DNA of 64,000 nt, taken from assembly GCA_024637095.1 (NCBI GenBank), contig JAGXFV010000032.1, positions 4,423-68,422 of the forward strand, in the 5' to 3' direction. The DNA is from Actinomycetes bacterium. Lineage in GTDB: Bacteria > Actinomycetota > Thermoleophilia > RBG-16-64-13. The notes beneath the pieces were generated by a model that had not been told where the DNA came from, did not search any database, and was given only the letters and a program-made list of their open reading frames with translations. The translations under genes were made by a program, and so were the position numbers. Below, in pieces: positions 25,692 through 64,000 of the stretch (position 1 is its first letter; each line of letters opens with the position of its first letter).

Positions 25692-26252
25692 CTACCCGGC
25701 CTCCTGGGCCAGGGTGACCAGGTCTTCGGCCGTCGGCTTCACTCCAACCAGGGTGCGGCTGATCTCGCCCTGCGAGTCGATGACGACCAGCGTGGGCACG
25801 CCCTGAACCCGGTAGTCCATGGCCAGCTGCCCATCGAGATCGAGCATCACCGGGAACTGATAGCCGTTCGACTGCAGAAAGTCGGTGACGTCCTCCTCCG
25901 TATCCTGCACTGCGACCACCAGAAGATTCGCGACTTCCGAGCTTTCCCGATAGAACCTATCGAGTTCGGGAGATTCCTCCACGCAGGTTGGTCACCAGGA
26001 GGCCCAAAAGTTGAGGAGCAACGGCTTACCTCGGTAGGACTCCAGCGAGAAGTCCTCGCGCACGAGGTTGACACCGCCGGTCGCCGTGGCGTCGCTCCCA
26101 ACCGTGGCGTCGTCGCCGGCCGCGGAGGCAGGGCCCTCCGTGTTATTCGCGGTGGGCTCGGATTCATCGTCTCCACAACCGGCCGGCCCAAAAGAGAGAA
26201 CGGCCACCAAGAGCAACAAGAGGATCGGCAACAGGGTCCTCGATCGGGTCAT
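25692..26252 (-). CDS. TlpA/ResA/CcmG-like periplasmic thiol-disulfide oxidoreductase with an in-frame TGA (predicted selenocysteine) at 25992-25994, giving the active site W-A-S-W-U-P-T-C
   Basis: ORFs 25992..26252 and 25692..25982 are in the same frame, separated only by that TGA. Lipoprotein-like signal, then ...GKPLLLNFWASW[TGA]PTCVEESPELD... The TGA sits where the first Cys of WCxPC belongs. Confidence 0.6.
25946..25980 (-). promoter_or_regulatory. Candidate bacterial SECIS hairpins downstream of the TlpA-like UGA
   Basis: RNA: UGA, 11 nt, then GGAG-gaau-CUCC at +12, then CUCGAUA-gguuc-UAUCGGG (7 bp, G/U-containing loop) at +28. The fold was not computed. Confidence 0.3.
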
Positions 26253-35386: not shown

Positions 35387-37393
35387 CTAGACCTCGTGCA
35401 GGCGGGCTTGGCGCTCGTAGCGGGCGGCCAGCCGCCGCTCCTCCCGCCGGTCCGGCCATAGCGCGATGAGTCCGCCGAGGGTGGCAACAATGCCCCCGAT
35501 CCAGAGCCAACTGGTCAGCGGGTTGACGCTGACGTCGACGGTGATGGTGGCGCCGTCCGGCGCTTCGTATTCCATCAGTGAGACGTAGACGTCACGCAGC
35601 AGAGTGCTGTGCCGGTCCACGCGGGTCCAGGGCTGGTCCTTGGCAAAATAGAACTCCCGCACCGGCTCTGCCGTACCCAGGAACTTACCGTCCTCCTCGA
35701 GGCGGAAGACCGCCTGACCCACCGACTTCTCGTCGGTGTTGAAGCTGGAGAATTCCTCATAGGTGACGGTGTAGTCGCCCACGGTCACCGCTTCGCCCTT
35801 GGCGAGCTGGACGTTCTGGGCCTTCTCCTGGAAGGAGTAGTGCCCGGTGACCCCGATCAGGAAGAGGATGACTCCGGCATGGACGATGTAGCCTCCGTAG
35901 CGCCGCTTATTCCGCCGGACCAGCGAGGTGAAGGCCTTGAAGATGTTGTCGCCGGTCATCTCGCGCCGCACCAGGGTTCCTCGGGCGAATTCCATAAAGA
36001 TGGTACCCAGCACGAAGGCCGAGAGGGTGAAGGCGATCAGAGCCCAGACGTGGGTCATCCCGAACGCCAAGAGGGCCACCAGTACCACGGCCGCGGTCCC
36101 GCCAGGGTACATGAAGTTCTTGCTAAGGTTGGCGAAGGTTGCCCTCCGCCACGCTATGAGCGGGCAGATACCGGTGAGGAACATAAAGACCAAACCGATG
36201 GGACGGATGACCGTGTCGAAGAAGGGCGGACCGACCGTCTGCTTGTCGCCGGTGATCGCTTCGCTGAGTATCGGCCACAGCACGCCCCAGAGGACAGTCC
36301 CGGCCATGCCCACGAGCAGCAGGTTGTTCATAAGGAAGCTGGACTCCCGCGACAGCAGGCTGTCCAACTCGTTACGCGACTTCAGCAGGTCGAGCCGGCT
36401 GAAGAGCAGGTTGAGGCTGAAGACCAGGGTCAGCGCCATGAAGGCTATGAAGTAGGGACCCACGCTGGCCTGCCCGAAGGAGTGCACCGAATTGATGATG
36501 CCCGAGCGCGTCAGGAAGGTGCCGAAGATGGTCAGGGTGAAGGTCATGATGATCAGGACGATGTTCCACACCTTCAGCATGTCCTTCTTTTCCTGGATCA
36601 TCACCGAGTGCAAGAAGGCGGTGCCGGTCAGCCAGGGCATGAACGAGGCGTTCTCGACCGGGTCCCAGGCCCAGAAGCCCCCCCAACCAAGGGTGACGTA
36701 AGCCCACCAGGCGCCGACCAGGTTTCCGATGGTCAGGAAGAACCATCCGGCCAGGGTCCAGCGTCGGGTGGAACGGATCCAGAAGTCGCCCAAACGCTTG
36801 GTGATCAGCGCGGCCATGGCGAACGCGAAAGGCACCGCAAAGCCAACGTAACCCAGATAGGTAGCCACCGGGTGGATCACCATCCCCGGATTCTCGAGCA
36901 TAGGATTCAAGCCGTTGCCCTGGGCGGGTGAGCCCATGGGGTTGGCCTCGAAAGGATTCGAGCCCTCGAAGGCGACCAGAAGCAGGCCGAAGAAGAGCGA
37001 AACCACCATGAGGACGGAGACCACGTAGGGGACCAGTTCCCGGTTCTTCACGCGGTTCTGGTAGACCACCGTGGCCGAAAATCCGGCGAGCAAGAGGAGC
37101 CACAGCAGCAACGAACCCGCGTTGCCGGCCCAGAAAGCCGAGAAAGTGTAGAAGCCGTTGAGATCGTTCGAGGTGTACTGCCACACGTAATAGTTCGAGT
37201 AATCGCGGGTCATCATGGCGATCCAAAGGACCACCGCCGCCACACCGACCACGGCGGCGAGCGCGTAGGCAGAGTGCAGCCCGCTCTGGATTAGGTCCCG
37301 CCGGCCCAGGCGCGCGCCAACCACGGGCATCACAGCGCCATAAGCGGCCAGCATGACCGCGAGCAGAAGGGCCGTGTAACCGATTTGATTCAT
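35387..37393 (-). CDS. ccmF: Cytochrome c-type biogenesis heme lyase CcmF
   Basis: 668 aa, polytopic, with a WWD domain and the conserved His residues. Confidence 0.9.
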   Translation of the reverse strand: MNQIGYTALLLAVMLAAYGAVMPVVGARLGRRDLIQSGLHSAYALAAVVGVAAVVLWIAMMTRDYSNYYVWQYTSNDLNGFYTFSAFWAGNAGSLLLWLLLLAGFSATVVYQNRVKNRELVPYVVSVLMVVSLFFGLLLVAFEGSNPFEANPMGSPAQGNGLNPMLENPGMVIHPVATYLGYVGFAVPFAFAMAALITKRLGDFWIRSTRRWTLAGWFFLTIGNLVGAWWAYVTLGWGGFWAWDPVENASFMPWLTGTAFLHSVMIQEKKDMLKVWNIVLIIMTFTLTIFGTFLTRSGIINSVHSFGQASVGPYFIAFMALTLVFSLNLLFSRLDLLKSRNELDSLLSRESSFLMNNLLLVGMAGTVLWGVLWPILSEAITGDKQTVGPPFFDTVIRPIGLVFMFLTGICPLIAWRRATFANLSKNFMYPGGTAAVVLVALLAFGMTHVWALIAFTLSAFVLGTIFMEFARGTLVRREMTGDNIFKAFTSLVRRNKRRYGGYIVHAGVILFLIGVTGHYSFQEKAQNVQLAKGEAVTVGDYTVTYEEFSSFNTDEKSVGQAVFRLEEDGKFLGTAEPVREFYFAKDQPWTRVDRHSTLLRDVYVSLMEYEAPDGATITVDVSVNPLTSWLWIGGIVATLGGLIALWPDRREERRLAARYERQARLHEV

Positions 37394-37421
37394 GAAGCTA
37401 GATCCTCCCTACCGCTCTTGT

Positions 37422-37859
37422 CTACTGCTTGTCCGAGGGCGCTTGTTCGCCATTCTCGGCGGCCGCCTCGTACTTTGATGGGCACTTGGCCAGCAGGAAG
37501 TTGGCGTCGAACGTGCCACTCCCGGAGTAATTGCCTTCCACGACGACTTCGACATCGGGCTCGTCTGTGAAGGTGTCGGGCACCGCGCCCGTATAGGTCA
37601 CGTAGAGTACCTGGGCCTCGTCGGCCTTGTCGTGGATCTTGAATTTGAGCGGATCGCCCACCTGACCCTTTTCGATCGTGCCGTTGACCAGGGTCCCGGC
37701 AACGCGGACGTTATCCGCCGCGCCCCGGTCCATGACCTCGGCCACCTCGTAGTAATAGACCGCATTCTGAGACATCGCATACCAGCCCAACGAGGCAATT
37801 GCGGCCAGGATGACGAACCCGCCAATCACGAATTTCGTGCGCTTGTTACCCATGTGCAT
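37422..37859 (-). CDS. ccmE: Heme chaperone CcmE, Cys-type variant (LAKCPSKYE in place of LAKHDE..Y)
   Basis: 145 aa with an N-terminal TM helix and a CcmE OB-fold. The heme-binding His is replaced by Cys within a CxxxY motif. Confidence 0.8.
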   Translation of the reverse strand: MHMGNKRTKFVIGGFVILAAIASLGWYAMSQNAVYYYEVAEVMDRGAADNVRVAGTLVNGTIEKGQVGDPLKFKIHDKADEAQVLYVTYTGAVPDTFTDEPDVEVVVEGNYSGSGTFDANFLLAKCPSKYEAAAENGEQAPSDKQ

Positions 37860-37901
37860 GCCCTCTTCCTTGGTTTACCGCCGGCATGGTTTTGCTCGAG
37901 A

Positions 37902-38393
37902 TCAATAGAGGAGCCTTTCGAGTCCCGCTCCCTTGGCGATCCCGTTCGAGATCTTCTCGGGGAGGAGTTTGTCCGGGCATTGTATCAACAGCTCGGTGGC
38001 CTCGAGGGTATTACTTTCGCCCAGGGAACCCATGGCCACGACGCGCTCGTATGCCTTCAAGCGTTCGGGGAAGGCTCCGACGTAGCGGACGTCCAGGGGC
38101 TCCCCGGTCTCACCCTCCAGAGTGAAGGTGACCACTTCGCCCTGTTGCAGAACGGAACCCGGGGACACCAGGCCCCCCACGCGCAGGTTCTCTCCCGAAC
38201 CGACGGCCTTGGCCTCCTCCACGGTCTGGTAGAAGTCGCCACCCACCGCGAAGAAAAGCACCGCCCAGAGAACCACGGCCGCCACGGCGCCCCCTATCAA
38301 CCACATACGGCGATGGCTCATCCCCTCAGCTTGGGTATGCTCGGCCGAAGCCTCGCTCTTGCGCCAGGTTTGCTCGGCACCGGTGGTGCTCAT
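37902..38393 (-). CDS. Second CcmE-like paralogue, also Cys-type (LIQCPDKLLPE)
   Basis: 163 aa with the same architecture. ATG at 38391-38393 behind GGAGGAGG. Confidence 0.6.
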   Translation of the reverse strand: MSTTGAEQTWRKSEASAEHTQAEGMSHRRMWLIGGAVAAVVLWAVLFFAVGGDFYQTVEEAKAVGSGENLRVGGLVSPGSVLQQGEVVTFTLEGETGEPLDVRYVGAFPERLKAYERVVAMGSLGESNTLEATELLIQCPDKLLPEKISNGIAKGAGLERLLY

Positions 38394-39121
38394 GCCGCCT
38401 CCTCCAACTGCGATGATTCCGAAACCGCTGAGCCCCGACCGGACGAGGTCAGCAGCTCCTGCAAAGCCGCCTCAGCCTGGGCTGGGGGAGCCGCCAACCA
38501 ATAGAGGTCTTTGCCTGAGCGGAAGTAGTAGTGGCGCTGGCCCATGCCGTCGAGTTGATAGACAGGAGCCGCGTCCTCGCCAATGTCCTCGAGTCCGGTG
38601 AACGGCGTCCCGCCGTCCTCGATCAGCACCGTCATCCGGTCGAGCATCTCGACGGCGTCCTCCTCGCGGTTCGAGCGCGAGATCCAGAGAGTGGCCTCGC
38701 CCTGCTGACCGTACTTGGCGATCCAGGCGGAATCCAGTCCTGCGCCCAGCGCCTTGCCGTGAAGCTGTTCGACTTCGGTCACAGCCTGGGGACCGGTCAC
38801 CTCGTGAAACAGTCCGAACCCGGCAAGGCTTTCGGGAACGGGATTGAGGACGGCCGCTTCGGCGGCCGCTTCCGCCGCTTCGGCGGCCGCTCTTTCGGCC
38901 TTCTCGTCGGAGAAGTCGAAGACTCCGCCGTCGGAGTCGAAGGTGCGGGCGGCAAGGGTTATCACCGAGAGGACCACCACGATTGCGAGGGCCCAGCGAG
39001 ACAGCTTCTCGCCGCGCTTCTTGCGAGCGAGCCGCTCTGGGTCGTCGGGAAGTTGGTCCGGTTCGGCGGGCAGTTGCGGCTCGTGCTCTTGCTCAGTCAC
39101 GCTCTTGGTTGGCCTTCCCAT
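38390..39121 (-). CDS. Membrane-anchored hypothetical protein
   Basis: 243-aa ORF with one TM helix and Ala-rich repeats. No recognisable domain. Confidence 0.4.
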   Translation of the reverse strand: MGRPTKSVTEQEHEPQLPAEPDQLPDDPERLARKKRGEKLSRWALAIVVVLSVITLAARTFDSDGGVFDFSDEKAERAAAEAAEAAAEAAVLNPVPESLAGFGLFHEVTGPQAVTEVEQLHGKALGAGLDSAWIAKYGQQGEATLWISRSNREEDAVEMLDRMTVLIEDGGTPFTGLEDIGEDAAPVYQLDGMGQRHYYFRSGKDLYWLAAPPAQAEAALQELLTSSGRGSAVSESSQLEEAA

Positions 39122-39258
39122 TTAGTCTTGTGAACTGGTTCTCTAAGCCCGAGTGGCATCTTACTACCGGGCGTAGTAGCCGTCAATCCGCTATCGGGAC
39201 AATTGGATGCAAGAAGCGGTGCGGCTCCGCGCCGCACCGCCTGCAATCGAGCCTCCCT

Positions 39259-40428
39259 TTAGTCGCGTTCCTCTCCGCACTCAGGGCAGAATCGGTCACG
39301 CTTGCCCAACTGGCTACCGCAACTTGTGCAGTACCGAGACGGGCCCCCCGAGCGGGTTTTCGCGCGGTCGGCGCCCTTGCGGGGTCCGGCGTCGCTGCGC
39401 GCACGGCGAACGCTGGTGCTGGCCGGTGCCGGGCGCAGGAAGAGCCGGTATGCCGCGAAGCCACCGATCGCCACCACCATGGCTGCGAGAACCGCGAGCA
39501 GAAGAGTCTGATTGGAGTTACCCGCCGCGCTGTCAGTATCGCCCTCGAGTGAGGGGTCGGCATCGGGCTTCGTGTAGTCGACCTGCAGGCTCACGATCTG
39601 CCCCTCGGAGGCGGCGCCCAGGCTATCGCTGTAGTAGGTGAATCCCTGGGCGTCCTGGGTGCTCTGAGAGGGCATCGGGGCGATAGTGAACTCAGTCGAG
39701 CGCAGCGGCTGCTGGACGGACACCGTGAGCTGCGCCGTGGCAATGGGCACCCGGAAGAGCACGGGGAAAGACCTTGAGCCTGAGCCGCTGATGCCCGGAT
39801 TGTAGTAGTACTCGACGCGCACGTCGCGGATCTTGGGGATGGTCAGGTTGTATACGTCCCATTGCTCGTTCCCCGCCTCCAGGTTAGGGGTCGGGGCGGG
39901 CCGGCTGTAGTCGAACTGCCCCTGGGCCGTGACCTCGGCCACCCCGGTGAGCCGGGCTCCGCGGGGGATGGCCACCTGGAACTCAGCGGGAAGCTCGACA
40001 CTGTCGGCCAGGTGCAGATCGGCCATGATCAACACCTCGGCAGAATCGTATTCGGGCCAGGCCTGCAGCTCGAGCGAGTCAAGAGACATCCCGGAGTTGG
40101 CGGCCTCGAATCCTTCCGGGGCGGCCAAGAGAGCGGTCGAGAAGGCCTGGCCCGCGACGGCTTCACCCGTCGAGGTCTCGGTCGCCGCCTCGGTGGATTC
40201 GGTCGCCGGTGCCTCGGTGGTGGTTGTCTCCGGAGCGCTGGTGGTCGTCTGCGCGAGCGCCGCTCCCGTGACCCCCATCGTCAGCGCGAGGGCAAGAAGA
40301 GTGAGAGCCGCGGCGCCCACGTACCACTCGCGCCGCGCGAGCGAAGCCGCGATCTGGTGCGAAATTCTGGAGGTATTGGTCCTCGTCATGCGTCCATCCA
40401 TGGTTGGTAGGTTTTCGTAGAGACTCAT
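39259..40428 (-). CDS. Secreted/membrane hypothetical protein with a Thr-rich linker, C-terminal TM helix and a zinc ribbon
   Basis: 389-aa ORF with a signal-like N-terminus, a C-terminal hydrophobic helix, then CTSCGSQLGKRDRFCPECGEE. Confidence 0.4.
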   Translation of the reverse strand: MSLYENLPTMDGRMTRTNTSRISHQIAASLARREWYVGAAALTLLALALTMGVTGAALAQTTTSAPETTTTEAPATESTEAATETSTGEAVAGQAFSTALLAAPEGFEAANSGMSLDSLELQAWPEYDSAEVLIMADLHLADSVELPAEFQVAIPRGARLTGVAEVTAQGQFDYSRPAPTPNLEAGNEQWDVYNLTIPKIRDVRVEYYYNPGISGSGSRSFPVLFRVPIATAQLTVSVQQPLRSTEFTIAPMPSQSTQDAQGFTYYSDSLGAASEGQIVSLQVDYTKPDADPSLEGDTDSAAGNSNQTLLLAVLAAMVVAIGGFAAYRLFLRPAPASTSVRRARSDAGPRKGADRAKTRSGGPSRYCTSCGSQLGKRDRFCPECGEERD

Positions 40429-40470
40429 CCGAGCGCCGGGATTCCACGGCGCGTAATCCCAATTCAGGTG

Positions 40471-41304
40471 CTACTTGCTTGCAGAGGCCCCTTCTGAGGC
40501 TCCGGTCAGGTGCTTGTTGCCGGCCTTGCGCTGTTGCCGGCGCCGTTCCGCCCGCGGGCCCTTGCTCAACTCGGAGCCGCGGTTCTCGTTCCACCAGACG
40601 ACCGCACCTCCGATGACGATCAGCGCGATGCTGATCCACTGCTGTTGGGTGAGACCGGCAAGAACGGGGTCGTTGGTACGCACGAACTCGACCAGAAAGC
40701 GTTCCACGCCGGCCAGGAAGACATAAGACCAAAACAGCGAGCCCAGGCGGTGCAGGCGCGGGGCCAGGACCCAGAGGAGCAGTGCCAGGATCGCGAGCGA
40801 GCCAAAGGTCTCGTACAGCTGGGTGGGATGGACCACCTGCGTGGTCGGGGGTGAGCCCTCAGGGAAGGACATGCCCCAGGGAAGACTGGTGGGCACCCCA
40901 TAGTCGTCGCCATTCAAGAAACAGCCAATTCTGCCGACGGCGTACGCCGCCGCCAGGGCGGGTGCGATGGCGTCCGCGATCAGGGCGATCGGCGGTTTGG
41001 ACCACAAAGCGACCAGCGACACGACCAGCGCCCCCCCAAAGAGACCGCCGTACCAAACCAGGCCGGTGCCGCTGAAAGCCGCCGCCTCAAATTGGTCGGG
41101 ATGGATGGCCAGGTAGTGCAACTTGGCCCCGACCACCCCGCCCACGATGGCCGCAATCAACAGGGAGTAGGTGATACCGGGATCCACTCCACGCCGGCGA
41201 AGCTGCCAACCGGTCACCAAACCCGCCGTGACGAAGGCGAGAGCCATCATCAACCCGAAGGAGTGGATGGTGACCGGTCCGATATCTACTAACTCAGGGT
41301 ACAT
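40471..41304 (-). CDS. lgt: Prolipoprotein diacylglyceryl transferase
   Basis: 277 aa with the Lgt signature (GPVTIHSFGLMMALAF... and GRIGCFLNGDDYG). Confidence 0.85.
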   Translation of the reverse strand: MYPELVDIGPVTIHSFGLMMALAFVTAGLVTGWQLRRRGVDPGITYSLLIAAIVGGVVGAKLHYLAIHPDQFEAAAFSGTGLVWYGGLFGGALVVSLVALWSKPPIALIADAIAPALAAAYAVGRIGCFLNGDDYGVPTSLPWGMSFPEGSPPTTQVVHPTQLYETFGSLAILALLLWVLAPRLHRLGSLFWSYVFLAGVERFLVEFVRTNDPVLAGLTQQQWISIALIVIGGAVVWWNENRGSELSKGPRAERRRQQRKAGNKHLTGASEGASASK

Positions 41305-41325
41305 CTCGGAATCTGCTTCCCGGGC

Positions 41326-42018
41326 CTACTTAGCGTCTGCCGGAGCCTGTTCCGAGGTGGCGCCGTGCGGGCTCGCGCTGTCCGCCGAGCCTTCCATCAT
41401 CTTCACGAACTCGGCCGACAGCAGTCCGATTTCACTATTGGCGTCGATGTCGACCGCCTTCTGCCAGGAGGCCTGCGCGGCTTCACGGTCGTCACTGGAG
41501 AAGTTCACAATGGCCAGGTTGTAGTAGCCGACCTGGCTTTCGGGCTGCGCTTCGACCAGTTGCTCGAGATCAGACTTCGCTGCGTCGACTTCGCCCTGCG
41601 ACAGTTTGACCATCGCAAGACCGGCTAACGCCTCGTCGTTGTCGGCCTCCAGAGCCAGAGCTTCCTCGTACTTGGCGGCGGAATCGTCCAGCCGGCTGGC
41701 CTGAATATAGACGGCGCCCAGGTTCAGTACCGCGTCGATGTTCTTGGGATCCGCATTGTAGGTCTCTTCAGCGTCGGCCACGACCTCTTCCACGGTGGGA
41801 CCCGCGGCGGCGCCGCCCTCGGCGCCCTCGGAGATGTCGGGGTGCTCGGCCGGCATCTCGGCGTCGGGATCGATCGGAGGCGCATTGGTGCCCGAGGTGT
41901 CCTGCGAAGCAACGGCCTCGACTTGTTCATCGTCCCCGGTTAGCGTCGGAATCAGAACAACGAGTCCTACCACCGCCACCGCTGCTGCGATGAGAATGAC
42001 CAGGTTCTGCTTCTTCAT
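41326..42018 (-). CDS. Membrane-anchored TPR-repeat protein
   Basis: Start set at the ATG at 42016-42018 (MKKQNLVILIAAAV...). TPR-like repeats follow (AVLNLGAVYIQASRLDDSAAKYEEAL...). Confidence 0.55.
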   Translation of the reverse strand: MKKQNLVILIAAAVAVVGLVVLIPTLTGDDEQVEAVASQDTSGTNAPPIDPDAEMPAEHPDISEGAEGGAAAGPTVEEVVADAEETYNADPKNIDAVLNLGAVYIQASRLDDSAAKYEEALALEADNDEALAGLAMVKLSQGEVDAAKSDLEQLVEAQPESQVGYYNLAIVNFSSDDREAAQASWQKAVDIDANSEIGLLSAEFVKMMEGSADSASPHGATSEQAPADAK

Positions 42019-42268
42019 TAGGCGGATTTCCTTTCGTGAGTTACCGCAAACGAGCGAGGGTCCATCTCCGACGTGGAATAGTACAGCAACCCCCACCCGC
42101 CGCCAAGGAAGGTCCGGGGGCTTTTGCAAAAGAATTCACTAATAGACCGGCGGCTTCCGGAGGAAAATGGGCTGGGCGCCTCGGGCACCTCGCACCGATG
42201 GCTCCGCGGTGGCCGCGCCCGCCCCGATCGTGGCGGGCGAGAAATGGTCTCATGATACCCTTAGGGGT

Positions 42269-42499: not shown

Positions 42500-44071
42500 C
42501 TAGCCTCCGCCCCCTTGGCCGATCAACTGCAGCAGGCGCTCCTCGCCAAGTGGCCCTGGCGGCGCCACTTGGCCGTTCACCACGAGCGTCGGCACGGTGG
42601 ACACCCGATAGCGCTGAGCCACCTCGGGGAACGCCGTGGCGGCGATCATGTCCGCGGTCACGTGAGGCGAGGCCATGGCGAAGCGGTGAACCAGCCGTAC
42701 GACCCCGGGGCAGTTGGGGCAGGTGGGGGTCACCAGCACTTCGAGATGAACCGGCTCCGTCAATCCGGCCAAGCCCTCGTGGGTCTGCTCGCTCAGCCTA
42801 AACTCGCCGCGCGAGACGTCCATTACGTCATCCAGAAAGGCGCCGAACTCGTAGCCCGCAGGTACCCCATAGAAACGGATGCGGGGATGCTGATCGCTCT
42901 CCTTGCCGATGAGAGTCGCGGGGATGCGCTCGACGCCCAGGTCCTCGGCCCGTTCATGATCCTGCAGGAAGTCCAGCAACTCGAGTTCGAGCTTGGGAGA
43001 TAGCCCCGCGAACTCACTCAGCAGACGTCGGGCTTCTTCACACTCGTGACAGGCGAGGCTGGACATCTCGGAGTCCGACAATTGGGAAAAGTGCACCAGC
43101 CTCACCGGATCCACCAGCTTTCCCAGGATCCGAGACAGATTGGCTCGATCCTCCGAGGTGATGGCCTGCGGCTCTTCCGGCCGTCCGCCCTCCCGGCTGC
43201 GGGCGAATCTCACGGCGCTGAGGGCTGCGACCTGCCCTTCTCCCACCGCCTTCGCGATCTGGTAAGGCTCTCCAACGGAGTCACCCGCAGCGAAGATCCC
43301 GGGGATGCCGGTCTCCATCATACGGTTGACCTTGATGTGCCGGCCCTCGAACTCGAGCCCGTCCACCAGGGTCGACGGGGAGACACTCTCCCGGAAGATG
43401 AACACCCCATCGGCCACGAGCTCCCGTTCCGGCAGCACGACGTGGACCTTCATCCCTTCGCGGTACAGGCGGTCCGGCCGCTGCCGGGGAAGGACCTCGA
43501 CCTCGGCGGGAAGCTCGTAAGGCCCTTCGTACAGCGGGATGAACTTCACCTGACAGCCCATATCCTCGGCCAGGGCAGCAGCTTCCTCCTCACCTTCCTG
43601 GGCGTAGCTGATGAAAGCCACCTCGCGTCCGGCGTACAGGCGGCCGTCGCAGTTGACACAGTAGCTGACGCCCATGCCCACCAGATCGTCCTCGCCCTCG
43701 AGGGTCGAGCCCCGGTAGACCCCGGGCGCCAGGATGATTGCCTGGGCGTGATAGTTATCCCGGTCGGTGGAGACCATCAACTCGTCCTCGCCGGGAAGAA
43801 TGCGCGTCACCCGTTCTTTGAGCAGGGTCACCTCGAAGCGTTCCAGATGCTCGAGAAAACTCTCGGCGAGTTCCTCCCCGGTGGTGAAGGTGAAGCCCGG
43901 ATAGTTGGGGATATGCGGCGCACGTCGGGTCTTCGAAAAGGGCCGCAGCGCGTCGAACACCGCCACCGTGCGTTTGCGGTTGGCCACATTCATAGCGGCG
44001 GAGAGGCCCGCCGGTCCCGCGCCTACCACGATCACGTCATAGCCCGACGATTTGCTCTCAGGAGTGGTCAC
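42500..44071 (-). CDS. Thioredoxin-reductase-like flavoprotein fused to C-terminal thioredoxin/PDO-like domains
   Basis: GTG at 44069-44071 behind GAGGTGA. YDVIVVGAGPAG, a TrxR-like redox-active SYCVNCDG, then thioredoxin-fold segments carrying LACHEC and TPTCPNCP. Confidence 0.6.
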   Translation of the reverse strand: MTTPESKSSGYDVIVVGAGPAGLSAAMNVANRKRTVAVFDALRPFSKTRRAPHIPNYPGFTFTTGEELAESFLEHLERFEVTLLKERVTRILPGEDELMVSTDRDNYHAQAIILAPGVYRGSTLEGEDDLVGMGVSYCVNCDGRLYAGREVAFISYAQEGEEEAAALAEDMGCQVKFIPLYEGPYELPAEVEVLPRQRPDRLYREGMKVHVVLPERELVADGVFIFRESVSPSTLVDGLEFEGRHIKVNRMMETGIPGIFAAGDSVGEPYQIAKAVGEGQVAALSAVRFARSREGGRPEEPQAITSEDRANLSRILGKLVDPVRLVHFSQLSDSEMSSLACHECEEARRLLSEFAGLSPKLELELLDFLQDHERAEDLGVERIPATLIGKESDQHPRIRFYGVPAGYEFGAFLDDVMDVSRGEFRLSEQTHEGLAGLTEPVHLEVLVTPTCPNCPGVVRLVHRFAMASPHVTADMIAATAFPEVAQRYRVSTVPTLVVNGQVAPPGPLGEERLLQLIGQGGGG

Positions 44072-44213
44072 GTCTTCACCTCGTCCGTGCGAATGGTTCC
44101 TGTCGCTTCTACCCGCGCGGAAGAGGGCGAAAAACGGGGAGGCGGGCCGAGCCCGCCTCCCCGTCGTTTTCCGACGTTCTCCTTTGGGGCCGCCACATCT
44201 CAGGGATCGGGGG

Positions 44214-44837
44214 TCAGGCCCCGCTCTCCTCGACCACGCGACCAGTCTCATCCACCGATTGCCAGTAGCAGCCCGTGAACATCGCGCGCGTCCGGGCGAG
44301 GGGCTGCATCAGCACCAGGTAGATGTGCACCAGCGTGAAGGACACGAACACCCAGGCAATTAGGAAGTGGATCTGCCGGGCGGTCATGAGTCCCCCGAAC
44401 AAGTCCACCAACCAGAAGAGCCGGGTCGGCCAGTAGAGGGCGAAGCCGACCAGCACCATAACCGCGGAAAGGACGAACAGCAGCAAGTAGGTGATGATCT
44501 GCAACGGGTTGTACTTTCGCAGATGGATGTTCTCGTCCGTTATGAACAGGTAGTACTTGAGAGAGTTGCCCAGCCCCGACATGTTGCGCGGAGTGGGCCC
44601 TGCCTGAGACCACTTGCCGCTGGCGAAGAACTGATAGATGTGAAACAGCCCTATGAACACGAATAGGTACATGTCCACGAAGTGCACCCAGCGGGCGTTG
44701 TTCATACTGCCGAACACGTTGAACTCCGGCCAGTGGATCTGAAACCCGGACAGTACCAGCAGCACGGTGTTGGCGAGGTGGATCCAATGGCCGGTGCGCT
44801 CAATGGGATCGTGATAGCAAAGCAGCTGGCGTTTCAT
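44214..44837 (-). CDS. [NiFe] hydrogenase b-type cytochrome membrane subunit (HyaC/HupC family)
   Basis: 207 aa with four TM helices and conserved His ligands. Immediately downstream of the large subunit. Confidence 0.8.
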   Translation of the reverse strand: MKRQLLCYHDPIERTGHWIHLANTVLLVLSGFQIHWPEFNVFGSMNNARWVHFVDMYLFVFIGLFHIYQFFASGKWSQAGPTPRNMSGLGNSLKYYLFITDENIHLRKYNPLQIITYLLLFVLSAVMVLVGFALYWPTRLFWLVDLFGGLMTARQIHFLIAWVFVSFTLVHIYLVLMQPLARTRAMFTGCYWQSVDETGRVVEESGA

Positions 44838-44849
44838 GGCTCCCCTTCC

Positions 44850-46487
44850 TCACCGCACCTTGAAGTCGAGAACCCGGTTGCTCTTCGGTTCAATCACGTG
44901 AACCGAGCACGCCATTCAGGGATCGAAGCTGTGCAGGGTGCGCAACACCTCCAGCGGCCGCTCCGGGTCGGCCACCGGCGTGCCCACCAGCGCCTCTTCC
45001 ACCGGTCCCCGGATGCGCTCGGCCGTCATCCGCGGTGAGAAGTTCCAACCGGACGGGGTGATCACCGAGTAGTGGCTGACCACGCCATCATCCAATTCAA
45101 CCCAATGCGAGAGTGAACCCCGAGGCGCATCCCAGCCGCTGAAGCCACGACCGCTGGGGTTGTCCGGGAAGGGCTCGAAGAAATCGAGGTCCCCACCCTT
45201 CATGTTCTCGCGCAGAGCCGCGACATAGGCCAGAGTCTGATCGGCCACCAGTTGGATCTTGAGCGTGCGGGCGGCGATCCGTCCGAGATTGGAGAAGAGC
45301 ACCGGGATGTTGCCGGCCTGGCCGACGGCGGCCAGGGTGTTGTCCACCATCTGCTTGGCCGGATGGGAGTCTCCATGGACCAGGTAGGCCATCAACATCT
45401 CCGCCAGGGGGCCGACTTCGCACGGCACGCCCTTGAGTGTCGAACCGCGATCCCAGGCGTAGCGGTCCAGTCCCGCCACCTCGGTGATGCCGTGAGGGCC
45501 GGTGAAGTCCGGCCTTTGCTTGGCCTCGTAGGGATGCATGTCGTCGAAGGGCTCCTGCCAGGTGCTTGTGTACCAGACGCGCACATCCTCCAGTTGGTCG
45601 ACAGGCTGAACGTCGAGGTTGCCCTCCAGCGCACCGATGACAGCGCCCTGGGGGAAGAAGCGGTTCTCGGGCCGGCCTTCCTCCATGTCGTTCCAGTCGA
45701 GCACACCCCAACTGAAGTAGTTGCCGTGGCCCTGCCCTATGGTCGCCTGGTCCAGGTAGTAGGGGGCGATGGCCAGCAGGTCGGGAACCATCTTGTTGTC
45801 GATGAAGTCCTTGACCTGCTGCACCTTGAAGGCATAGCGGTTGATCTGCTCCTCATGGGGGACCGAGGACCAGCCGCCGGGCGGAGTCGACATATGGTGC
45901 GGGAACTTGCCCCCGAAGACGGCGAAGGCCTCCGAGGCCGTAGCCTGAATGGAGACCGATTCGAGATAGTGTGCAGCCAGTTGCAGGTTGAGCTCGGGAG
46001 GCAAGGTGTAGGCCGGATGATCCCAGTAGCCGCTCTCCAGGAAGCCGAGTTGGCCGGAATCCACGAAGGCCTGCAGCCGCCGTTGCACCGTTTGCAAACC
46101 CTCAGAGGAGGCCTGTGCCCCGAGCGCGCTGGGCACGTTTACGTAATCCAGGCCGTTCAGGACGTAGAACCAGAGCACGTGGTCGTGGAGCAACTGCCCG
46201 CACTCGAGCAGGTTGCGCATCAGGCGGCCGTTCACGGGGATGTTCACGCCCGCCGCGTCTTCCAGAGCGAAGGCGGAGTTGTGGCCGTGCGGCGCTGGGC
46301 ACACTCCGCAGATCCGCTCGGTGTAGTGCTGAGCGTCATACCAGGGTCGGCCTTCGACGATGGTCTCCATGCCGCGGAAGAGCGTGCTGCACGTCCAGGC
46401 GTCCGTCACCACTCCGTTCTCCACCTCTACCTCTACGTGAAGGTGGCCCTCGATGCGGGTGACCGGGTCGATGATGATCTTCGGCAT
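44850..46487 (-). CDS. [NiFeSe] hydrogenase large subunit, with TGA (Sec) at 44916-44918 in the C-terminal DP-U-MAC-SVH motif and a 15-aa protease-cleavable tail
   Basis: N-terminus RICGVCPAPH (the L1 motif). The ORF stops at ...LRTLHSFDP, and the same frame continues TGA-MACSVHVIEPKSNRVLDFKVR-TGA. This recreates DPUxxCxxH exactly. Confidence 0.85.
44886..44905 (-). promoter_or_regulatory. bSECIS-like hairpin 11 nt downstream of the hydrogenase UGA
   Basis: RNA: UGA-AUGGCGUGCU-CGGUUCA-cgugau-UGAACCG. This is a perfect 7-bp stem beginning at +11 with a G/U-containing loop. Confidence 0.5.
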
Positions 46488-47594
46488 CTAGACCTCCTCC
46501 TCTTCTTCGACCACCTCTTGGGTCTTGCCGAGGCGCCCCCGGGCGGCGCTGACAGCGAAGTGGGCGGCGATGGCGGCACCGGTGGCGGCAGCCAGTCCAA
46601 TGCCGATGGTGTCGGCGTCGGCGCGGATCCCCCCGACTCCCGGAATGGCGATTCCGGGCATGGGCTCATAGAAATCGATCAGCTCATCCCAGAAGTCCTT
46701 CTCGGCGCAGCCGATGCACTGGCCCGCCTGCACGCACCAGGAGGTGCGCCCGTTGAAGAGGACCTGAGGACAGTCGGCGAAGGTGCTGGGGCCGCGGCAG
46801 CCCATTTTGTACAGGCAATAGCGGTTGAACTCGTCCTCGCTGCCCAGCTGCTCGACGAAACGGCCCTCGTCGAAGTGAGATCGCCGCTCGCACATGTCGT
46901 GAACCTTCTTGCCGAAATGAACCAGCGGGCGGCGCCAGCGATCCGTCTCGGGCAGAGCCCCACGGGTCAGGAAGTAGGTGATGGTCGAAGTCAGGTGAAC
47001 CGGATTCACGGGGCAGGTGGTCAGCTGCACGAGCTTATCCGTGTCCATGCCCTCGCTCTCCATGAATTCCAGCATGCCCATGGCTCCGGTCGGGTTCGGG
47101 TGGGCGGCCTGGACGTTGCCGAAAGCGGCGCAGTTGCCAATTGCGATCACCAGCGCCGCCGCCGGGATGACCTCTCGGGCGATGTCGACCGAGGTCCGAC
47201 CTCCGACGGTCATGGCATTCTCTATCCCGGTGGCCACCGATCCCTCGACCACCAGGACGTAGCCGCCCGCGGACACGTTCTTCGCGAGGCTCTGGTGCGC
47301 ATTCTCTCCCGCGCCGGCCATGATGGCCTCGTGGTATTCGACGCTGACCAGATCGAGCACCAGGCTGACGAAGTCGGGATCGCGGCTCTTGGTGACAGAT
47401 TCGGTGCAACCCAAGCATTCCTGCCATGTCACCCAGACGACCGGCCGGCGCTCGGCCGCCTGAGCCAGCGCCCGCGCAATGTTGGGAGCGAAGGAGCTCC
47501 CCAATCCCATGGCCGCGGCCAGCGTGGTGCAGCCCTTCAGGAAATCTCGCCGGCTTAGATCGTGCGCTTCCAGGGCCTTCTCAAGTCGATTCAC
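46488..47594 (-). CDS. [NiFe] hydrogenase small subunit with a Tat signal
   Basis: GTG at 47592-47594 behind AAGGGGTGG. ...LSRRDFLKGCTTLAAAMGLG..., then VWVTWQECLGCTES and distal cluster Cys. The stop abuts the large-subunit start. Confidence 0.85.
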   Translation of the reverse strand: MNRLEKALEAHDLSRRDFLKGCTTLAAAMGLGSSFAPNIARALAQAAERRPVVWVTWQECLGCTESVTKSRDPDFVSLVLDLVSVEYHEAIMAGAGENAHQSLAKNVSAGGYVLVVEGSVATGIENAMTVGGRTSVDIAREVIPAAALVIAIGNCAAFGNVQAAHPNPTGAMGMLEFMESEGMDTDKLVQLTTCPVNPVHLTSTITYFLTRGALPETDRWRRPLVHFGKKVHDMCERRSHFDEGRFVEQLGSEDEFNRYCLYKMGCRGPSTFADCPQVLFNGRTSWCVQAGQCIGCAEKDFWDELIDFYEPMPGIAIPGVGGIRADADTIGIGLAAATGAAIAAHFAVSAARGRLGKTQEVVEEEEEV

Positions 47595-47864: not shown

Positions 47865-48032
47865 GCCCGCGGCGGTTCCTGCACTGCTGCCGATTCTATT
47901 GACTTTGCGCTGCCGGCGAAAGCCCTCCATTACCGGGGAATGGAAAGCGCAGCCGCAAAAAACAAAGTAGGGCGGCCCCGGGGGGCCGCCCTACCCTGCA
48001 ACAGGTTGGCGAAAAAGCTATTGGCGCGGCCC

Positions 48033-48593
48033 TTATCCGTCGAACCGGCGAAGTTCGTCGTCGAGTCGGGCGCGCACCTGATCGGAGCCTTCTCGATTCA
48101 CAGGGATCGGCACTGCGGCGGCGGGCTCGTCCTGGCGGCGCCAGCGCTGAATCACGAACAAGAGGGCGCCGAGGGCCACCAACGTGGCCAAGGTCGGGAA
48201 GAGATAGGCCATCAGGCCGAAACCCGACTTCTCGGGGGCGGCGAGTATCTGCGTACCGTAACGGTCTTTGAAAAAGCCGACAATCTCGCCCTTGTCCGAG
48301 CCGCTCACCACCATCGAACGTATCTGGGCCTTTATCTCTTCAGCCTTCTCGCTGTTGTGCTCCGCGACGGTCTGGGTGTAGCAGCAGGGAGCGATGAGCT
48401 CTCCCTCCAAGGACCGAGCCAACGATTCCTGCTCGGAAGACAGGATCTCCGCTGTATCGGCCAAAGCGGCCCCGGGAACCAAGAACATCGCGGCCAAGAG
48501 CAGAAAGGCCGAGACCACGAGGGCAAGGGGGCTCAGCCCAAGCCCTTTCCCATCAGCGCGCGACATCAATGCTCCTCTCTCCGGTGAACTCAC
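48033..48593 (-). CDS. Second CcmH-like paralogue (periplasmic CC motif, C-terminal TM helix)
   Basis: 186 aa. The C-terminal 60 residues are nearly colinear with the ccmH-like gene at 34884..35378 (LAAPEKSGFGLMAYLFP...RARLDDELRRFD). The Cys motif is APCCYTQT. Confidence 0.45.
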   Translation of the reverse strand: MSSPERGALMSRADGKGLGLSPLALVVSAFLLLAAMFLVPGAALADTAEILSSEQESLARSLEGELIAPCCYTQTVAEHNSEKAEEIKAQIRSMVVSGSDKGEIVGFFKDRYGTQILAAPEKSGFGLMAYLFPTLATLVALGALLFVIQRWRRQDEPAAAVPIPVNREGSDQVRARLDDELRRFDG

Positions 48594-56760: not shown

Positions 56761-58989
56761 TTAGATGCCGGTAGGAAGCTCCGTCGCGTCCGAGCGCTCC
56801 AGCCGAGCGAGGTTGTCGTGGTCGCCGGTCTTCTCGATCGAAACACGGGTGCTACCCCAAGCAAGTTCACCGGTGTCCCCAACTTCCAGCAGTTCGAGCA
56901 GGTCAACGGTGTTGACGCCCCGATCGTTGGCGTAGCGCCCGTAGGCCACGTGTCCCTGGCCCATGGGCATACCCACCACGCCGGGTGCGATTCCCTGAAA
57001 CACGTACACCGGCACCTCGAGTTCGGCGCTCTGGGAGGCGACGCGGACGATATCCCCCGTCTTCAACTCGAGCTCTTCGGCCAATCCGGGATTGATCTCG
57101 ACCCAGCTTTGCCAGACCACGGTGGTCATGGGGTCGGGTGCCTCCTGCAGCCAGGCCTTGTTGGCGTGGCGTCCCTCGGCCAGGAGCAGATGGGGGTAGA
57201 TCTGCAGGCGATGCGGCCGGGCTTCCTCCGGACGGGCCGTCACCAGCTGCTCGAGGGCGACCTCCGAGGGCACGACGGGCGTGACCTCGGGCCGGTCTTC
57301 CTGCGTCGACCACCAGCCTCCGAACTGCCGCCACTCCAAGAAGAACTTCTCCGGATCGTTGGTCAGGATCGAACCGGTCTGAATCCGCCCGGCGGTCAGA
57401 GCCTGCTGCATGGTCTCCACCGACTGACGCACATAGGTGAACTCGTCCTCCCAGGGCAGGAGTTCGGCGTACGTCCCTCCCGCCAGCCGCGCCCCGGCCA
57501 GAAAGATGTCTACGAGCGACCTCGTGTCGAAAACGGGTGGGACCACGGGCTGCTGCGCCGTCATCGTCGAGAGCGCGGTCCCCGGTTCGGGCACACCGAA
57601 ACCCCAGGACTCCAGGTAAGTGTGCTGAGGTAACCGCAGATCGGCGAATAGCTCGCTGGTATCCGTGGGGAAGGGCGAGAAGTCGATGAGGAGAGGCACT
57701 TGGTCGGCCGCTTCGGCGAAGCCCATCGCCTCAGGAAGGTCGTGATAGGGGTCGCCGTCGGCCACCAGCAGCACGTCAACTTCGCCCGCCTTCATGTCTT
57801 CGAGCAGGGCGGCGGTTTCGACATAGGAGGAAACCTCCTCCCGAGGATCGAGTTCGCCTCCCGCTGGGGCCGGCGGGCTGAGGAAGAGGGTGCGGTTGGG
57901 AGCGCCCACCAGCAAGTTGAGCGCGAGCACTGCGCGGATTGCGGCAGGAGCGTTGTCGAAGGCACTCAGGCCACCGCCGGGGATGGCAAGGGGCGCCTCG
58001 GACCGGGCGAATCTCCTGGCGATCCGCACCAGTTTCTCGAAGTCCAGTCCGAGTTCCTCCGCCAGACCGCGCGCCTCCACCTGGGAGAAGAGTGCATCCA
58101 CCGAAGCGGGGCGATCGCCCGCACCCAGACGTTCGTCCAGAACGATCTTGCCTATTATCAGGGCGACCTCGCCCTCGCGCCCACCCGGTGGGGAAAGCCA
58201 ATCGTCGGCCACCGCGGCCGTCGACGAAAGGCGGGGCTCGACCGCCACGAGACTCCCCCGATTGGCGCCCTTACGCAGTTCGGCGAAGCCGCGCGAGTAC
58301 TGTACCGGCGAAAGCCAGGTCTCGAGGAAGGCAGCGTTGAAGCTGATGACCGCGCTTGCCGCCCCGATGTCGAACAGGGGCAGGCGCTCGGCCCCCAGGA
58401 TGTCCCCCGCTGCCTGTTGCAGAAGGTTACGGCCTTCCGCCGCCCGGTAGAGATTCCATACCGTGGGCCGGCGGTTGCCGCCCGCCGCCTCCAGCAGCCG
58501 AGCGGCCACCCGATAAACATGGTCGGGCAGATGACCGCCATAGATCGCGATCCGCCCCGGGGATTCGGAGAGGGCCTGGCCCAGAACGGCCAGCCCCTCG
58601 TCCCAGTTGGTGCGTTCGAAGGGGTCGGTTCTTTGATTTGCGCGCACTTCCGGCCCCTGCAGGCGATCCGGATTATACAACGCTTGGAGACCCGCCTGTC
58701 CTCTGGCGCACAGCCGTCCCTGGCTGATCGGGTGCTGCGGATTGCCTTCGAGTTTATTCGCGCGCCCGTTCATCGTACGCACCAAGATCCCACAGCCCGC
58801 CGGGCACATCTGGCAGAGACTGGTGTAGTAGGTGAAAGTCCCGGCAACCTGCTCCTCGGGGGTGCGCAGGAAAGGAACCAGCCGCTCCTCATTGCCTCTG
58901 CCACCGCAACCGCTCAGAGCAAGCGTGCCTGCCGCGGCCAGTAGCCCGGACTTCTTCAGAAACTCGCGCCGCGTGAACTTGGGCATCAT
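56761..58989 (-). CDS. Tat-exported molybdopterin (Mo-bisPGD family) oxidoreductase catalytic subunit
   Basis: ATG-ATG at 58984-58989. MMPKFTRREFLKKSGLLAAAGTLALSGC..., with the N-terminal Fe-S motif CQMCPAGC...C(ARGQ). About 742 aa. The 1024-aa ORF in the track over-extends across the upstream gene. Confidence 0.7.
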   Translation of the reverse strand: MMPKFTRREFLKKSGLLAAAGTLALSGCGGRGNEERLVPFLRTPEEQVAGTFTYYTSLCQMCPAGCGILVRTMNGRANKLEGNPQHPISQGRLCARGQAGLQALYNPDRLQGPEVRANQRTDPFERTNWDEGLAVLGQALSESPGRIAIYGGHLPDHVYRVAARLLEAAGGNRRPTVWNLYRAAEGRNLLQQAAGDILGAERLPLFDIGAASAVISFNAAFLETWLSPVQYSRGFAELRKGANRGSLVAVEPRLSSTAAVADDWLSPPGGREGEVALIIGKIVLDERLGAGDRPASVDALFSQVEARGLAEELGLDFEKLVRIARRFARSEAPLAIPGGGLSAFDNAPAAIRAVLALNLLVGAPNRTLFLSPPAPAGGELDPREEVSSYVETAALLEDMKAGEVDVLLVADGDPYHDLPEAMGFAEAADQVPLLIDFSPFPTDTSELFADLRLPQHTYLESWGFGVPEPGTALSTMTAQQPVVPPVFDTRSLVDIFLAGARLAGGTYAELLPWEDEFTYVRQSVETMQQALTAGRIQTGSILTNDPEKFFLEWRQFGGWWSTQEDRPEVTPVVPSEVALEQLVTARPEEARPHRLQIYPHLLLAEGRHANKAWLQEAPDPMTTVVWQSWVEINPGLAEELELKTGDIVRVASQSAELEVPVYVFQGIAPGVVGMPMGQGHVAYGRYANDRGVNTVDLLELLEVGDTGELAWGSTRVSIEKTGDHDNLARLERSDATELPTGI

Positions 58990-59009
58990 CCTATTGCTGC
59001 TCTCCCTGT

Positions 59010-61289: not shown

Positions 61290-61849
61290 GAAGGCTCCCG
61301 TTCGATCACCAGGGCTTCTCCCTCAAGGCGCTCGGCCTCGAAGTCCTCGATCGGCAGAATGCGTGCTCCTTCCTCGCTCAGCGCCGCGCGAATACGGCCC
61401 TCGACCATGTCGGGAGGCACCTGCACGATCAGCACGTGTCCGTCGATGTCGGCCGGAATCACCCAGTCTCGCAGGGGATCCTTGCGGATGCGGTTCTCGT
61501 AGACAAAGCCGACAAAGGTCATGATGACGAGTCCCAGGATCGTCAGCTCGTACACGATGACAAAAACCGGCGGCGAAATGACCGCCTGGCTGCCCACGAT
61601 CAGCGGATAGAGTAGCAGCGTGCCCACCGAAAGGAAGAGACCGAGCGCCAGCCCGCCCACCAGCCCAAGCGAGGTGAAGAGCGGCAGACGGGTGTCGGAG
61701 GTCTCGCCCCCCATGAGCGAAGGCGGGTAAGGAATGTCGGTGAGCAGTTCGATCCGCTTTCGCGAAACCCCCATTCGAGACAGACGGCGCATGGCCCGGG
61801 CGATGCCCTCTGGGCCTTCGATCACCGCAAAGATGACTTCCCCGCTCAC
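61286..61849 (-). CDS. ActD-like (DUF3341) membrane subunit of an Alternative-Complex-III-type quinol oxidoreductase
   Basis: GTG start overlapping the upstream stop (GTGA). VSGEVIFAVIEGPEG...YPLIVGSQAVISPPVFVIVYELTILGLVIM fits the DUF3341 pattern. Confidence 0.5.
   Translation of the reverse strand: MSGEVIFAVIEGPEGIARAMRRLSRMGVSRKRIELLTDIPYPPSLMGGETSDTRLPLFTSLGLVGGLALGLFLSVGTLLLYPLIVGSQAVISPPVFVIVYELTILGLVIMTFVGFVYENRIRKDPLRDWVIPADIDGHVLIVQVPPDMVEGRIRAALSEEGARILPIEDFEAERLEGEALVIEREPS

Positions 61850-63448: not shown

Positions 63449-63468
<20 letters not shown>
61846..63468 (-). CDS. NrfD/PsrC-family polytopic membrane quinol-interacting subunit (ActC-like)
   Basis: 540 aa with about ten TM helices and a family-typical loop pattern. 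Exact start uncertain (20-bp overlap with the upstream gene). Confidence 0.8.

Positions 63469-64000
<532 letters not shown>

Follow-up and report, generated by a model that had tools for sequence, protein, structure and literature searches.

A UGA codon predicted to encode selenocysteine in a group-1 hydrogenase large-subunit gene of an actinobacterial genome

Does a hydrogenase large-subunit gene end at the TGA codon where its gene call stops, or is this codon read as selenocysteine (Sec) and translation continued? The question is raised by a stretch of DNA of 64,000 nucleotides from an Actinomycetes bacterium (assembly GCA_024637095.1, contig JAGXFV010000032.1, positions 4,423 to 68,422 of the forward strand), which we call the window and to which all coordinates below refer. 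An open reading frame (ORF) of 523 codons on its minus strand (46487 to 44919) encodes a hydrogenase large subunit that ends with ...LEVLRTLHSFDP and is followed by a TGA at 44918–44916. Judged from the sequence and its relatives, it is very likely that this UGA encodes Sec and that the enzyme is a [NiFeSe] hydrogenase; taken together with the Sec reading, we consider it just as likely that we are dealing with a group-1 respiratory uptake hydrogenase that is bound to the membrane, faces the periplasm, and has a selenoprotein as its large subunit.

The first-pass annotation of this DNA had described the annotated large subunit as stopping with ...LRTLHSFDP at TGA 44916–44918, the same frame as running on to a second TGA at 44850–44852, and the motif DP-U-MAC-SVH as being restored thereby. 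Sequence and translation agreed with all three statements. Beyond the first TGA, the large-subunit frame reads MACSVHVIEPKSNRVLDFKVR until it meets the second (44852–44850 on the minus strand), and the codons right after the UGA are ATG GCG TGC TCG GTT CAC GTG ATT GAA CCG. When the UGA is counted as residue 524 (predicted Sec524; 44916..44918, minus strand), the full-length gene (44850..46487, minus strand) comprises 545 codons plus the stop, and its product acquires the C-terminal nickel motif DPCxxCxxH, in which the TGA occupies the position of the first Cys of homologues, followed by 15 residues. The N-terminal nickel motif RICGVCPAPH (residues 58–67) conforms to RxCGxCxxxH, and the predicted nickel ligands of the large subunit are Cys60, Cys63, Sec524, and Cys527. 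PF00374 is on record for the protein. In a phmmer search of the PDB, the 545-residue protein with U replaced by C matched 1frf_L (Desulfovibrio fructosovorans) with E = 2.2e-120 over residues 4–544, the tail included, and the alignment to the NCBIfam model NF033181 covered residues 1–540. The name of this model, ‘NiFeSe_hydrog’, was not used as a sign of Sec, since the score lies below the cutoff and the name is perhaps a mere echo of the Pfam identifier.

To compare the codon among homologues, we used a protein set consisting of the best 120 clusters at 90% identity in a collection of 5.8 billion proteins, and DNA loci (numbered L) that were gathered from genome, metagenome, and single-protein look-ups. 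The metagenome scan returned few close relatives (best identity 47% among the matches listed), and the close ones came via the single-protein look-ups. The results showed that 69 of the 120 best clusters terminate exactly at ...H[ST][FY]DP, and the remaining 51 are full-length with DPC[IL]AC.VH, carrying a 15-residue extension in all but one case (50 of 51). At the DNA level, the equivalent of codon 524 was TGA in 26 related loci and TGC or TGT in 136, and xxCxVH followed the TGA in frame in every one of the 26.

A 7-bp hairpin had been claimed at +11 after the UGA, and this was borne out. The hairpin (44886..44905, minus strand) consists of CGGUUCA (44905–44899), the loop CGUGAU (44898–44893), and UGAACCG (44892–44886), and its first base is the 11th nucleotide past the UGA, with 10 nucleotides in between, as in a bacterial selenocysteine insertion sequence (SECIS). 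Of the 4481 codons of the window genes, only 48 (1.1%) are followed, in the equivalent position, by a perfect hairpin with 7 or more base pairs. The stem is built from codons that are locally rare (GTT, 6.4% of Val; ATT, 10.9% of Ile; GAA, 26.5% of Glu; 64% G+C), and the joint probability of the stem-forming codon set, given the peptide, was approximately 1.6e-4. Position 2 of the loop is G and is nearly invariant among the Sec-type loci, in agreement with the rule that a bacterial SECIS has G as nucleotide 1 or 2 of its apical loop (PMC13582414).

The hairpin was present at this region in 26 of 26 Sec-type loci, in the exact register in 21. Its stem was 6–8 bp long in 22 of 22 Sec-type loci scored, as against mostly 0–5 bp in the 136 Cys-type loci (Mann–Whitney, p = 1e-12 for stem length and p = 3e-6 for folding energy), and the four Sec-type loci that were added after scoring carry the same hairpin. 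When the 26 sequences were aligned, 81.9% of the stem cells were paired. Two basal pairs varied on both sides, in 11 cells in total (pair 14–33, CG 13/GC 6; pair 15–32, GC 17/CG 4/AU 1), some of these changes costing residue swaps (Ser or Ala to Gly, Pro to Arg), and the covariation score of 0.156, compared with 0.054 for shuffled alignments, was reached by none of 500 shuffles. Sec-type genes hold GTT CAC GTG ATT GAA CC(G) fixed across genomes of 57–69% G+C, whereas Cys-type genes with a very similar peptide (VHVTEP or VHVIDP) are free in their codon use (GTG/GTC/GTA, CAT/CAC, ACC/ATC, GAG/GAT). Since the same codons are fixed in one type and free in the other, a constraint on the RNA can be told apart from one on the protein.

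The possibility exists that the genome does not decode Sec at all, and the other window genes bear on this. The stops of the 38 confident window genes were TAG in 18, TGA in 11, and TAA in nine; a TGA stop is rarer here than we would expect for a high-GC actinobacterium (64% G+C). Only two in-frame TGAs were found in the confident window genes, both of them at UxxC sites. The second lies in a candidate selenoprotein gene for a TlpA/ResA/CcmG-like thioredoxin-fold lipoprotein (25692..26252, minus strand), which runs from ATG at 26252 to a TAG, with TGA at 25994–25992 giving the motif FWASW-U-PTC. When C stands in for U, the match of this protein to Pfam Redoxin extends across the TGA and its score goes up from 46.6 to 80.3 bits, and the TGA corresponds to the first Cys of NFWASW-C-xx-C, which was invariant across eight TlpA/CcmG homologues. 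At the 12th nucleotide past this UGA (11 nucleotides between) begins a small hairpin, CG(U)GGAG-GAAU-CUCCCG, which has a bulged U and whose loop starts with G; by itself, it was not statistically distinguishable from shuffles. The finding of a second in-frame TGA at a UxxC site suggests that the genome decodes Sec. Thiol:disulfide interchange and Prx-like oxidoreductases are among the known selenoprotein families, and the deep-branching actinobacterium Rubrobacter uses Sec (PMC1794560). Ccm genes lie approximately 10–22 kb from the TlpA/CcmG-like gene, and a Sec-containing CcmG could be its identity.

Several results weigh against decoding of the UGA as Sec. With the exception of one tRNA-Ser, ARAGORN detected no tRNA, tRNA-Sec included, in the window, nor in 14 Sec-type loci. 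No selA, selB, or selD was detected in the window by tblastn with E. coli SelA, SelB, and SelD, and the sole match of this search in the loci searched was in a Cys-type Dehalococcoidales locus (L042); weaker matches were to GTPase domains in ORFs of 794–938 residues, probably IF-2, and were discarded. The short Logan contigs that were reached from one window-end protein held no sel genes either. Because no sel genes lie within the window, the Sec machinery of this genome is something that we infer. The 64-kb window also holds no endopeptidase or hyp gene, as the first-pass annotation had stated and our search of the window corroborated. The large subunit scored below the curated cutoffs of both NF033181 (456.8 bits, cutoff 600) and the HysA model NF045518 (331.3 bits, cutoff 780). 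As to the hairpin, the folding z-score of the 45-nucleotide stretch by itself was an unexceptional −1.79, no Rfam family matched at gathering thresholds, and only meaningless hits were obtained around the hairpin at E <= 10. Five of the 26 Sec-type loci (L016, L017, L034, L154, and L119) use a slid or shifted register, their own hairpins lying one column away or six bases downstream. Finally, the stem overlies the conserved peptide VHVIEP, so that its conservation is partly at the protein level. Since the folding energy alone is unremarkable, we give weight to the hairpin for its position, its codon choice, and the comparative data.

It is also possible that the UGA is read through with another amino acid, by reassignment of UGA to Trp, Cys insertion, or near-cognate suppression. 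The absence of sel genes from the window would suit this explanation, as would UGA-to-Trp recoding in Actinomycetota, in some Eggerthellaceae, on which there is a preprint (10.64898/2025.12.01.691617). Reassignment to Trp was rejected on stop-codon usage, as TGA ends 11 of the 38 confident genes and long ORFs are intact with TGA as a stop. Furthermore, both in-frame TGAs align with an active-site Cys and not with Trp, and the dedicated hairpin, whose spacing is SelB-like, goes strictly together with TGA. Judged by sequence alone, insertion of Cys at the UGA is a possibility. Taken as a whole, read-through without Sec appears improbable.

Another explanation is that the gene truly ends at the TGA, either as a truncated pseudogene, through a mistake in sequencing or assembly, or because a 523-residue protein is functional with no more than three nickel ligands, in which case the hairpin would be intercistronic. 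This would account for the gene calls, all of which, as seen in public sources, finish at ...DP, ahead of two nickel ligands, and it would demand no Sec machinery, none of which is visible in the window. However, the same TGA is found in the 69 protein clusters and 26 DNA loci, and the truncated-type clusters were drawn from many independent assemblies (one cluster had 34 members). Thus, a sequencing error is excluded. The first-pass annotation had named relatives with a sense Cys codon, combined with a lack of Sec machinery in this genome, as a pointer to an error or a pseudogene; instead, the TGA came up again in dozens of assemblies that are independent of one another. The downstream 21 codons retain the frame, the C..H motif, and the stop, which is located exactly 21 codons past the UGA in 10 of 10 sequences of the same tail type (the window, L003, L004, L006, L020, L092, L167, L168, L172, and L068; approximately 34–69% identity). 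Synonymous variation occurs in these ten tails at Cys (TGC/TGT) and Asn (AAC/AAT), and together with the fixed position of the stop it indicates that the tail is under constraint at the protein level. A protein ending at Pro523 would be devoid of two of the four nickel ligands and of the motif His, and the hairpin has no T-run, for which reason it was also rejected as a terminator. A true end at the TGA is therefore very unlikely.

In Methanococcus voltae, the C-terminal peptide VhuU is encoded separately. An analogous split gene, in which a 21-residue tail is translated on its own from the ATG directly following the TGA in the window and joins the 523-residue protein, has the VhuA/VhuU pair as its precedent but is hardly credible here, since the codon after the TGA in relatives is ATC, ATT, CTG, CTC, or GTC, mostly non-start codons, the free tail would be without the motif's first nickel ligand, unlike VhuU, which has its own Sec, and no evident ribosome-binding site is present in ...CACAGCTTCGATCCC.

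A group-1-like operon consisting of a small subunit with a twin-arginine (Tat) signal, the large subunit, and a cytochrome b had been proposed, and profile matches upheld this. The small-subunit gene (46488..47594, minus strand; GTG start at 47594) encodes 368 residues with the twin-arginine signal SRRDFLKGC. Its product matched TIGR00391 (hydA) with 330 bits (cutoff 179.5) as well as TAT_signal_seq, and the same 368-residue gene call recurs on independent contigs. On the other side of the large-subunit gene, a b-type cytochrome membrane subunit of 207 residues is encoded (44214..44837, minus strand). It matched TIGR02125 with E = 1.8e-28 and 99.5 bits, under the cutoff of 121.5, and shares 62–65% identity with its positional counterpart in L003 and L004; PF01292 is on record for the equivalent genes of relatives. 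The locus thus shows the Tat signal, the C-terminal extension, and the cytochrome b partner that characterize group-1 uptake hydrogenases, the cytochrome b being assigned by synteny and homology. An intrinsic-terminator-like hairpin of 17 bp with a T-run (47962..47999, minus strand), found by a consensus terminator scan after the upstream CcmH gene, is the predicted upstream boundary of the hydrogenase transcription unit.

At the medial-cluster position, the small subunit has Cys and not Pro (SWCVQAGQCIGC): the window reads SWCVQAGQ-CIGC where D. vulgaris Miyazaki and D. desulfuricans (1h2a_S, 1e3d_A) read TNWPVDAGHPCIGC, i.e. W-C-V as opposed to W-P-V. In the structure of the Desulfomicrobium baculatum [NiFeSe] enzyme, Cys at the medial position goes with a [4Fe-4S] medial cluster. 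Since Cys stands in the place of Pro, the medial cluster of the window enzyme is predicted to be [4Fe-4S]. We also considered the medial Cys as a Sec-specific trait and rejected this, as it is present in 60 Cys-type loci (most of them) and Pro is found in Sec-type loci L172 and L173 (SWPVMAGGPCIGC). The Pro in these two small subunits shows that Sec and a four-Cys medial cluster are not strictly coupled.

The C-terminal extension VIEPKSNRVLDFKVR (44853..44897, minus strand) comprises residues 531–545, with a predicted cut after His530. The first-pass annotation had called it protease-cleaved, and in support of this the 15-residue tail aligns with the cleaved extension of the D. fructosovorans [NiFe] hydrogenase, viepksnrvldfkv of the window pairing with VIEPETNEILKFKV of 1frf_L. 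A cleavable extension makes sense only if the UGA is read through. In relatives, genes for the cleavage and for metal insertion adjoin the operon: an endopeptidase gene of the HycI family is located directly 3' of cytochrome b in L167, L168, and L172 and after two cytochrome b genes in L170, and hypA, B, F, C, D, and E come next in L167 and L170. L004, which is 67% identical, has hypF, D, E, and B upstream of the operon and an endopeptidase gene and hypC just downstream.

In the window, the slot after cytochrome b that holds the endopeptidase gene in relatives is occupied by a gene (42500–44251, minus strand) for a 583-residue fusion of a thioredoxin-reductase-like flavoprotein with a C-terminal protein-disulfide oxidoreductase; this gene and the end of the cytochrome b gene overlap by 38 nucleotides. 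The fusion protein matched TIGR02187 (‘PDO_seleno_TRX’) with 209.8 bits (cutoff 185). Among the searched loci, it had one weak match (L073) and none in the close relatives L003 and L004.

On the proposed mechanism, UGA 44918–44916 would be decoded as Sec by SelB-GTP-Sec-tRNA(Sec) acting on the hairpin that starts at the 11th nucleotide, and 21 further codons would be translated, supplying Sec524, Cys527, His530, and the 15-residue extension, a step consistent with the frame, the motif, and their conservation. Hyp proteins would then add the metals and a HycI/HybD-type endopeptidase would trim the precursor after His530, as suggested by the genes adjoining the operon in relatives. The large subunit would be exported together with the small subunit by way of the Tat signal of the latter, and the electrons from H2 would pass through the Fe-S clusters of the small subunit and cytochrome b to the quinone pool.

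The position of the enzyme among hydrogenases was examined in a neighbour-joining tree (no bootstrap) of 262 large subunits with references for groups 1a, 1b, 1c, and 1d, those for 1a and 1b being transcribed from HMMER alignments. The window falls in a clade of 64 leaves, all of which are of the Sec type, and this clade is nested in one of 140 leaves (77 Sec-type, 63 Cys-type). Nearest to the 64-leaf clade is a Cys-type Nitrospirota/Desulfobacterota clade, then Coriobacteriia; the sister of the 140-leaf clade is a Coriobacteriia group (11 Sec-type, 20 Cys-type) that corresponds to HydDB group 1i. The window clade lies apart from the 1a, 1b, 1c, and 1d references, and D. vulgaris HysA, at a distance of 1.36 from the window, groups in another major clade with sequences of Dehalococcoidia and the like. 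When compared with solved structures, the large subunit scored 406 bits against group 1b and 220–247 bits, in two stretches, against [NiFeSe] enzymes; a group-1a-like Dehalococcoidales protein scored equally against both types of structure (449 and 439 bits). The first-pass annotation had surmised a lineage other than sulfate reducers and methanogens, and this was correct: the depositor labels of the window's 90%-identity cluster and of the nearest loci are Thermoleophilia or Actinomycetota. Elsewhere in the Sec clade, the depositors' names are Gaiellales, Actinobacteria, Deltaproteobacteria, and Fidelibacterota metagenome-assembled genomes. This Sec-type clade is large and has gone almost wholly unannotated.

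In two of the loci with a shifted register, L034 and L154, the hairpin is formed on the same Val-His-Val codons with another stem, GUGCAC-GUG-(A/C)UGCAC, and both of these genes group with D. vulgaris HysA. L016 and L017 (Coriobacteriaceae) have a Val-His-Val hairpin with the stem UGUCCAC-GUG-GUGGACA. The Sec-type genes with these variant hairpins are at L034:7498, L154:2801, L016:11573, and L017:11576. The shared position of the SECIS across group-1 Sec enzymes could reflect common ancestry or a fixed spacing constraint. Sec may have been gained independently of the classical HysA clade, or it may be the ancestral state over much of group 1; since the SECIS lies on the same V-H-V codons in classical-, Coriobacteriia-, and Thermoleophilia-type genes, repeated loss of Sec to Cys is a possible course of events.

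According to HydDB, [NiFeSe] variants occur in groups 1a, 3a, and 3c (PMC5037454), and surveys report such variants from no groups other than 1, 3, and, lately, 4 (PMC13582414). According to a 2026 review, which also names VhuU, [NiFeSe] enzymes are restricted to sulfate reducers and methanogens (PMC13188914). In the literature searched, no paper tied NiFeSe to Thermoleophilia, Gaiellales, Coriobacteriia, or Actinomycetota. We tentatively suggest, as a possibility with slightly less than even chances, that the window gene is part of a large, so far unrecognized clade of [NiFeSe] hydrogenases that are linked to cytochrome b and reduce quinones, a clade that is spread over Thermoleophilia, Gaiellales, and other uncultured lineages and whose members are systematically annotated as truncated [NiFe] large subunits. 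If this is true, [NiFeSe] enzymes are not limited to sulfate reducers and methanogens, whichever of the two histories of Sec applies. An annotation error would be corrected as well, as surveys that rely on the truncated calls include a protein without the C-terminal motif. [NiFeSe] hydrogenases are prized as fast, relatively O2-robust H2 catalysts. The clade would widen the pool of natural [NiFeSe] enzymes and provide a data set on how frequently Cys and Sec have been exchanged in group 1.

As regards the other genes of the window, the hydrogenase operon lies inside a system-I cytochrome c maturation region (35387–42129 and 48033–48593, minus strand), which contains CcmF, tandem CcmE paralogues (37422–37874 and 37902–38393), a TPR CcmH-like gene, Lgt, and CcmH. 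The dnaB, rplI, rpsR, ssb, and rpsF genes that had been claimed for the window are indeed there. The replicative helicase DnaB (12548–14377, minus strand; 609 residues) has an intein, with matches to N- and C-terminal splicing regions at approximately residues 399–542. A gene for the formate-dehydrogenase accessory protein FdhD (23717–24670, minus strand) is present with no formate dehydrogenase gene nearby, and a nickel-pincer-nucleotide-dependent ornithine cyclodeaminase is encoded at 18444–19667 (minus strand; TIGR00300, 534 bits). The cluster at 56761–64000 (minus strand) is similar to alternative complex III or to a reductase of the polysulfide/tetrathionate type. Its products, listed here out of gene order, are a molybdopterin oxidoreductase, a multihaem/cbb3-type cytochrome c protein of 759 residues, a membrane protein like NrfD, and a 4Fe-4S protein; the ORFs 56761–59835 and 59010–61289 overlap, and their start sites are uncertain.

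How does the window enzyme compare with known systems? The HysAB enzymes of D. vulgaris Hildenborough and Desulfomicrobium baculatum (HydDB 1a; 2wpn, 5jsu, 1cc1) likewise have Sec at the first Cys of DPCxxCxxH, a hairpin after the UGA on the same V-H-V codons (seen in L034 and L154, which group with HysA), and a small subunit with Cys at the medial position and a Tat signal. Unlike them, the window enzyme is encoded with a cytochrome b gene after the large subunit and belongs to an actinobacterial and not a sulfate-reducing host, and the sequences are distant. Group-1b enzymes (D. fructosovorans 1frf, D. gigas 1frv/2frv, D. vulgaris Miyazaki 1h2a) gave the best structure matches for both subunits and resemble the window enzyme in overall length, in the 15-residue extension (VIEP.[ST]N..L.FKV), and in having a Tat small subunit; however, they have Cys in place of Sec and a medial Pro, which goes with a [3Fe-4S] cluster, and the 1b reference falls outside the window's clade in the rooted neighbour-joining tree. 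The Coriobacteria-type group 1i (HydDB, PMC5037454) resembles the window in being actinobacterial and in having cytochrome b adjoining the large subunit, and 11 Coriobacteriia leaves of the tree as well as locus L069, outside the tree, carry TGA and the same hairpin. It differs in its sequence (39–45% identity) and its tail (..TGK....SPWGVK, approximately 22–23 residues past the His), and its cultured Eggerthellaceae members are of the Cys type. The SECIS of E. coli fdhF also has a stem-loop that starts approximately 11 nucleotides past the UGA; the hydrogenase hairpin differs from it in having no bulged U and in its 7-bp stem and 6-nucleotide loop. The loop G/U of the hydrogenase, at 22–23 when counted from the U of UGA, is close to G23/U24 of fdhF. 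The position of Sec, the logic of the SECIS, and the presumed function are canonical, and no new mechanism is involved; what is new is the deep-branching actinobacterial lineage, the position apart from HysA, the cytochrome b partner, and the size of a clade that is cut short in all public gene calls seen.

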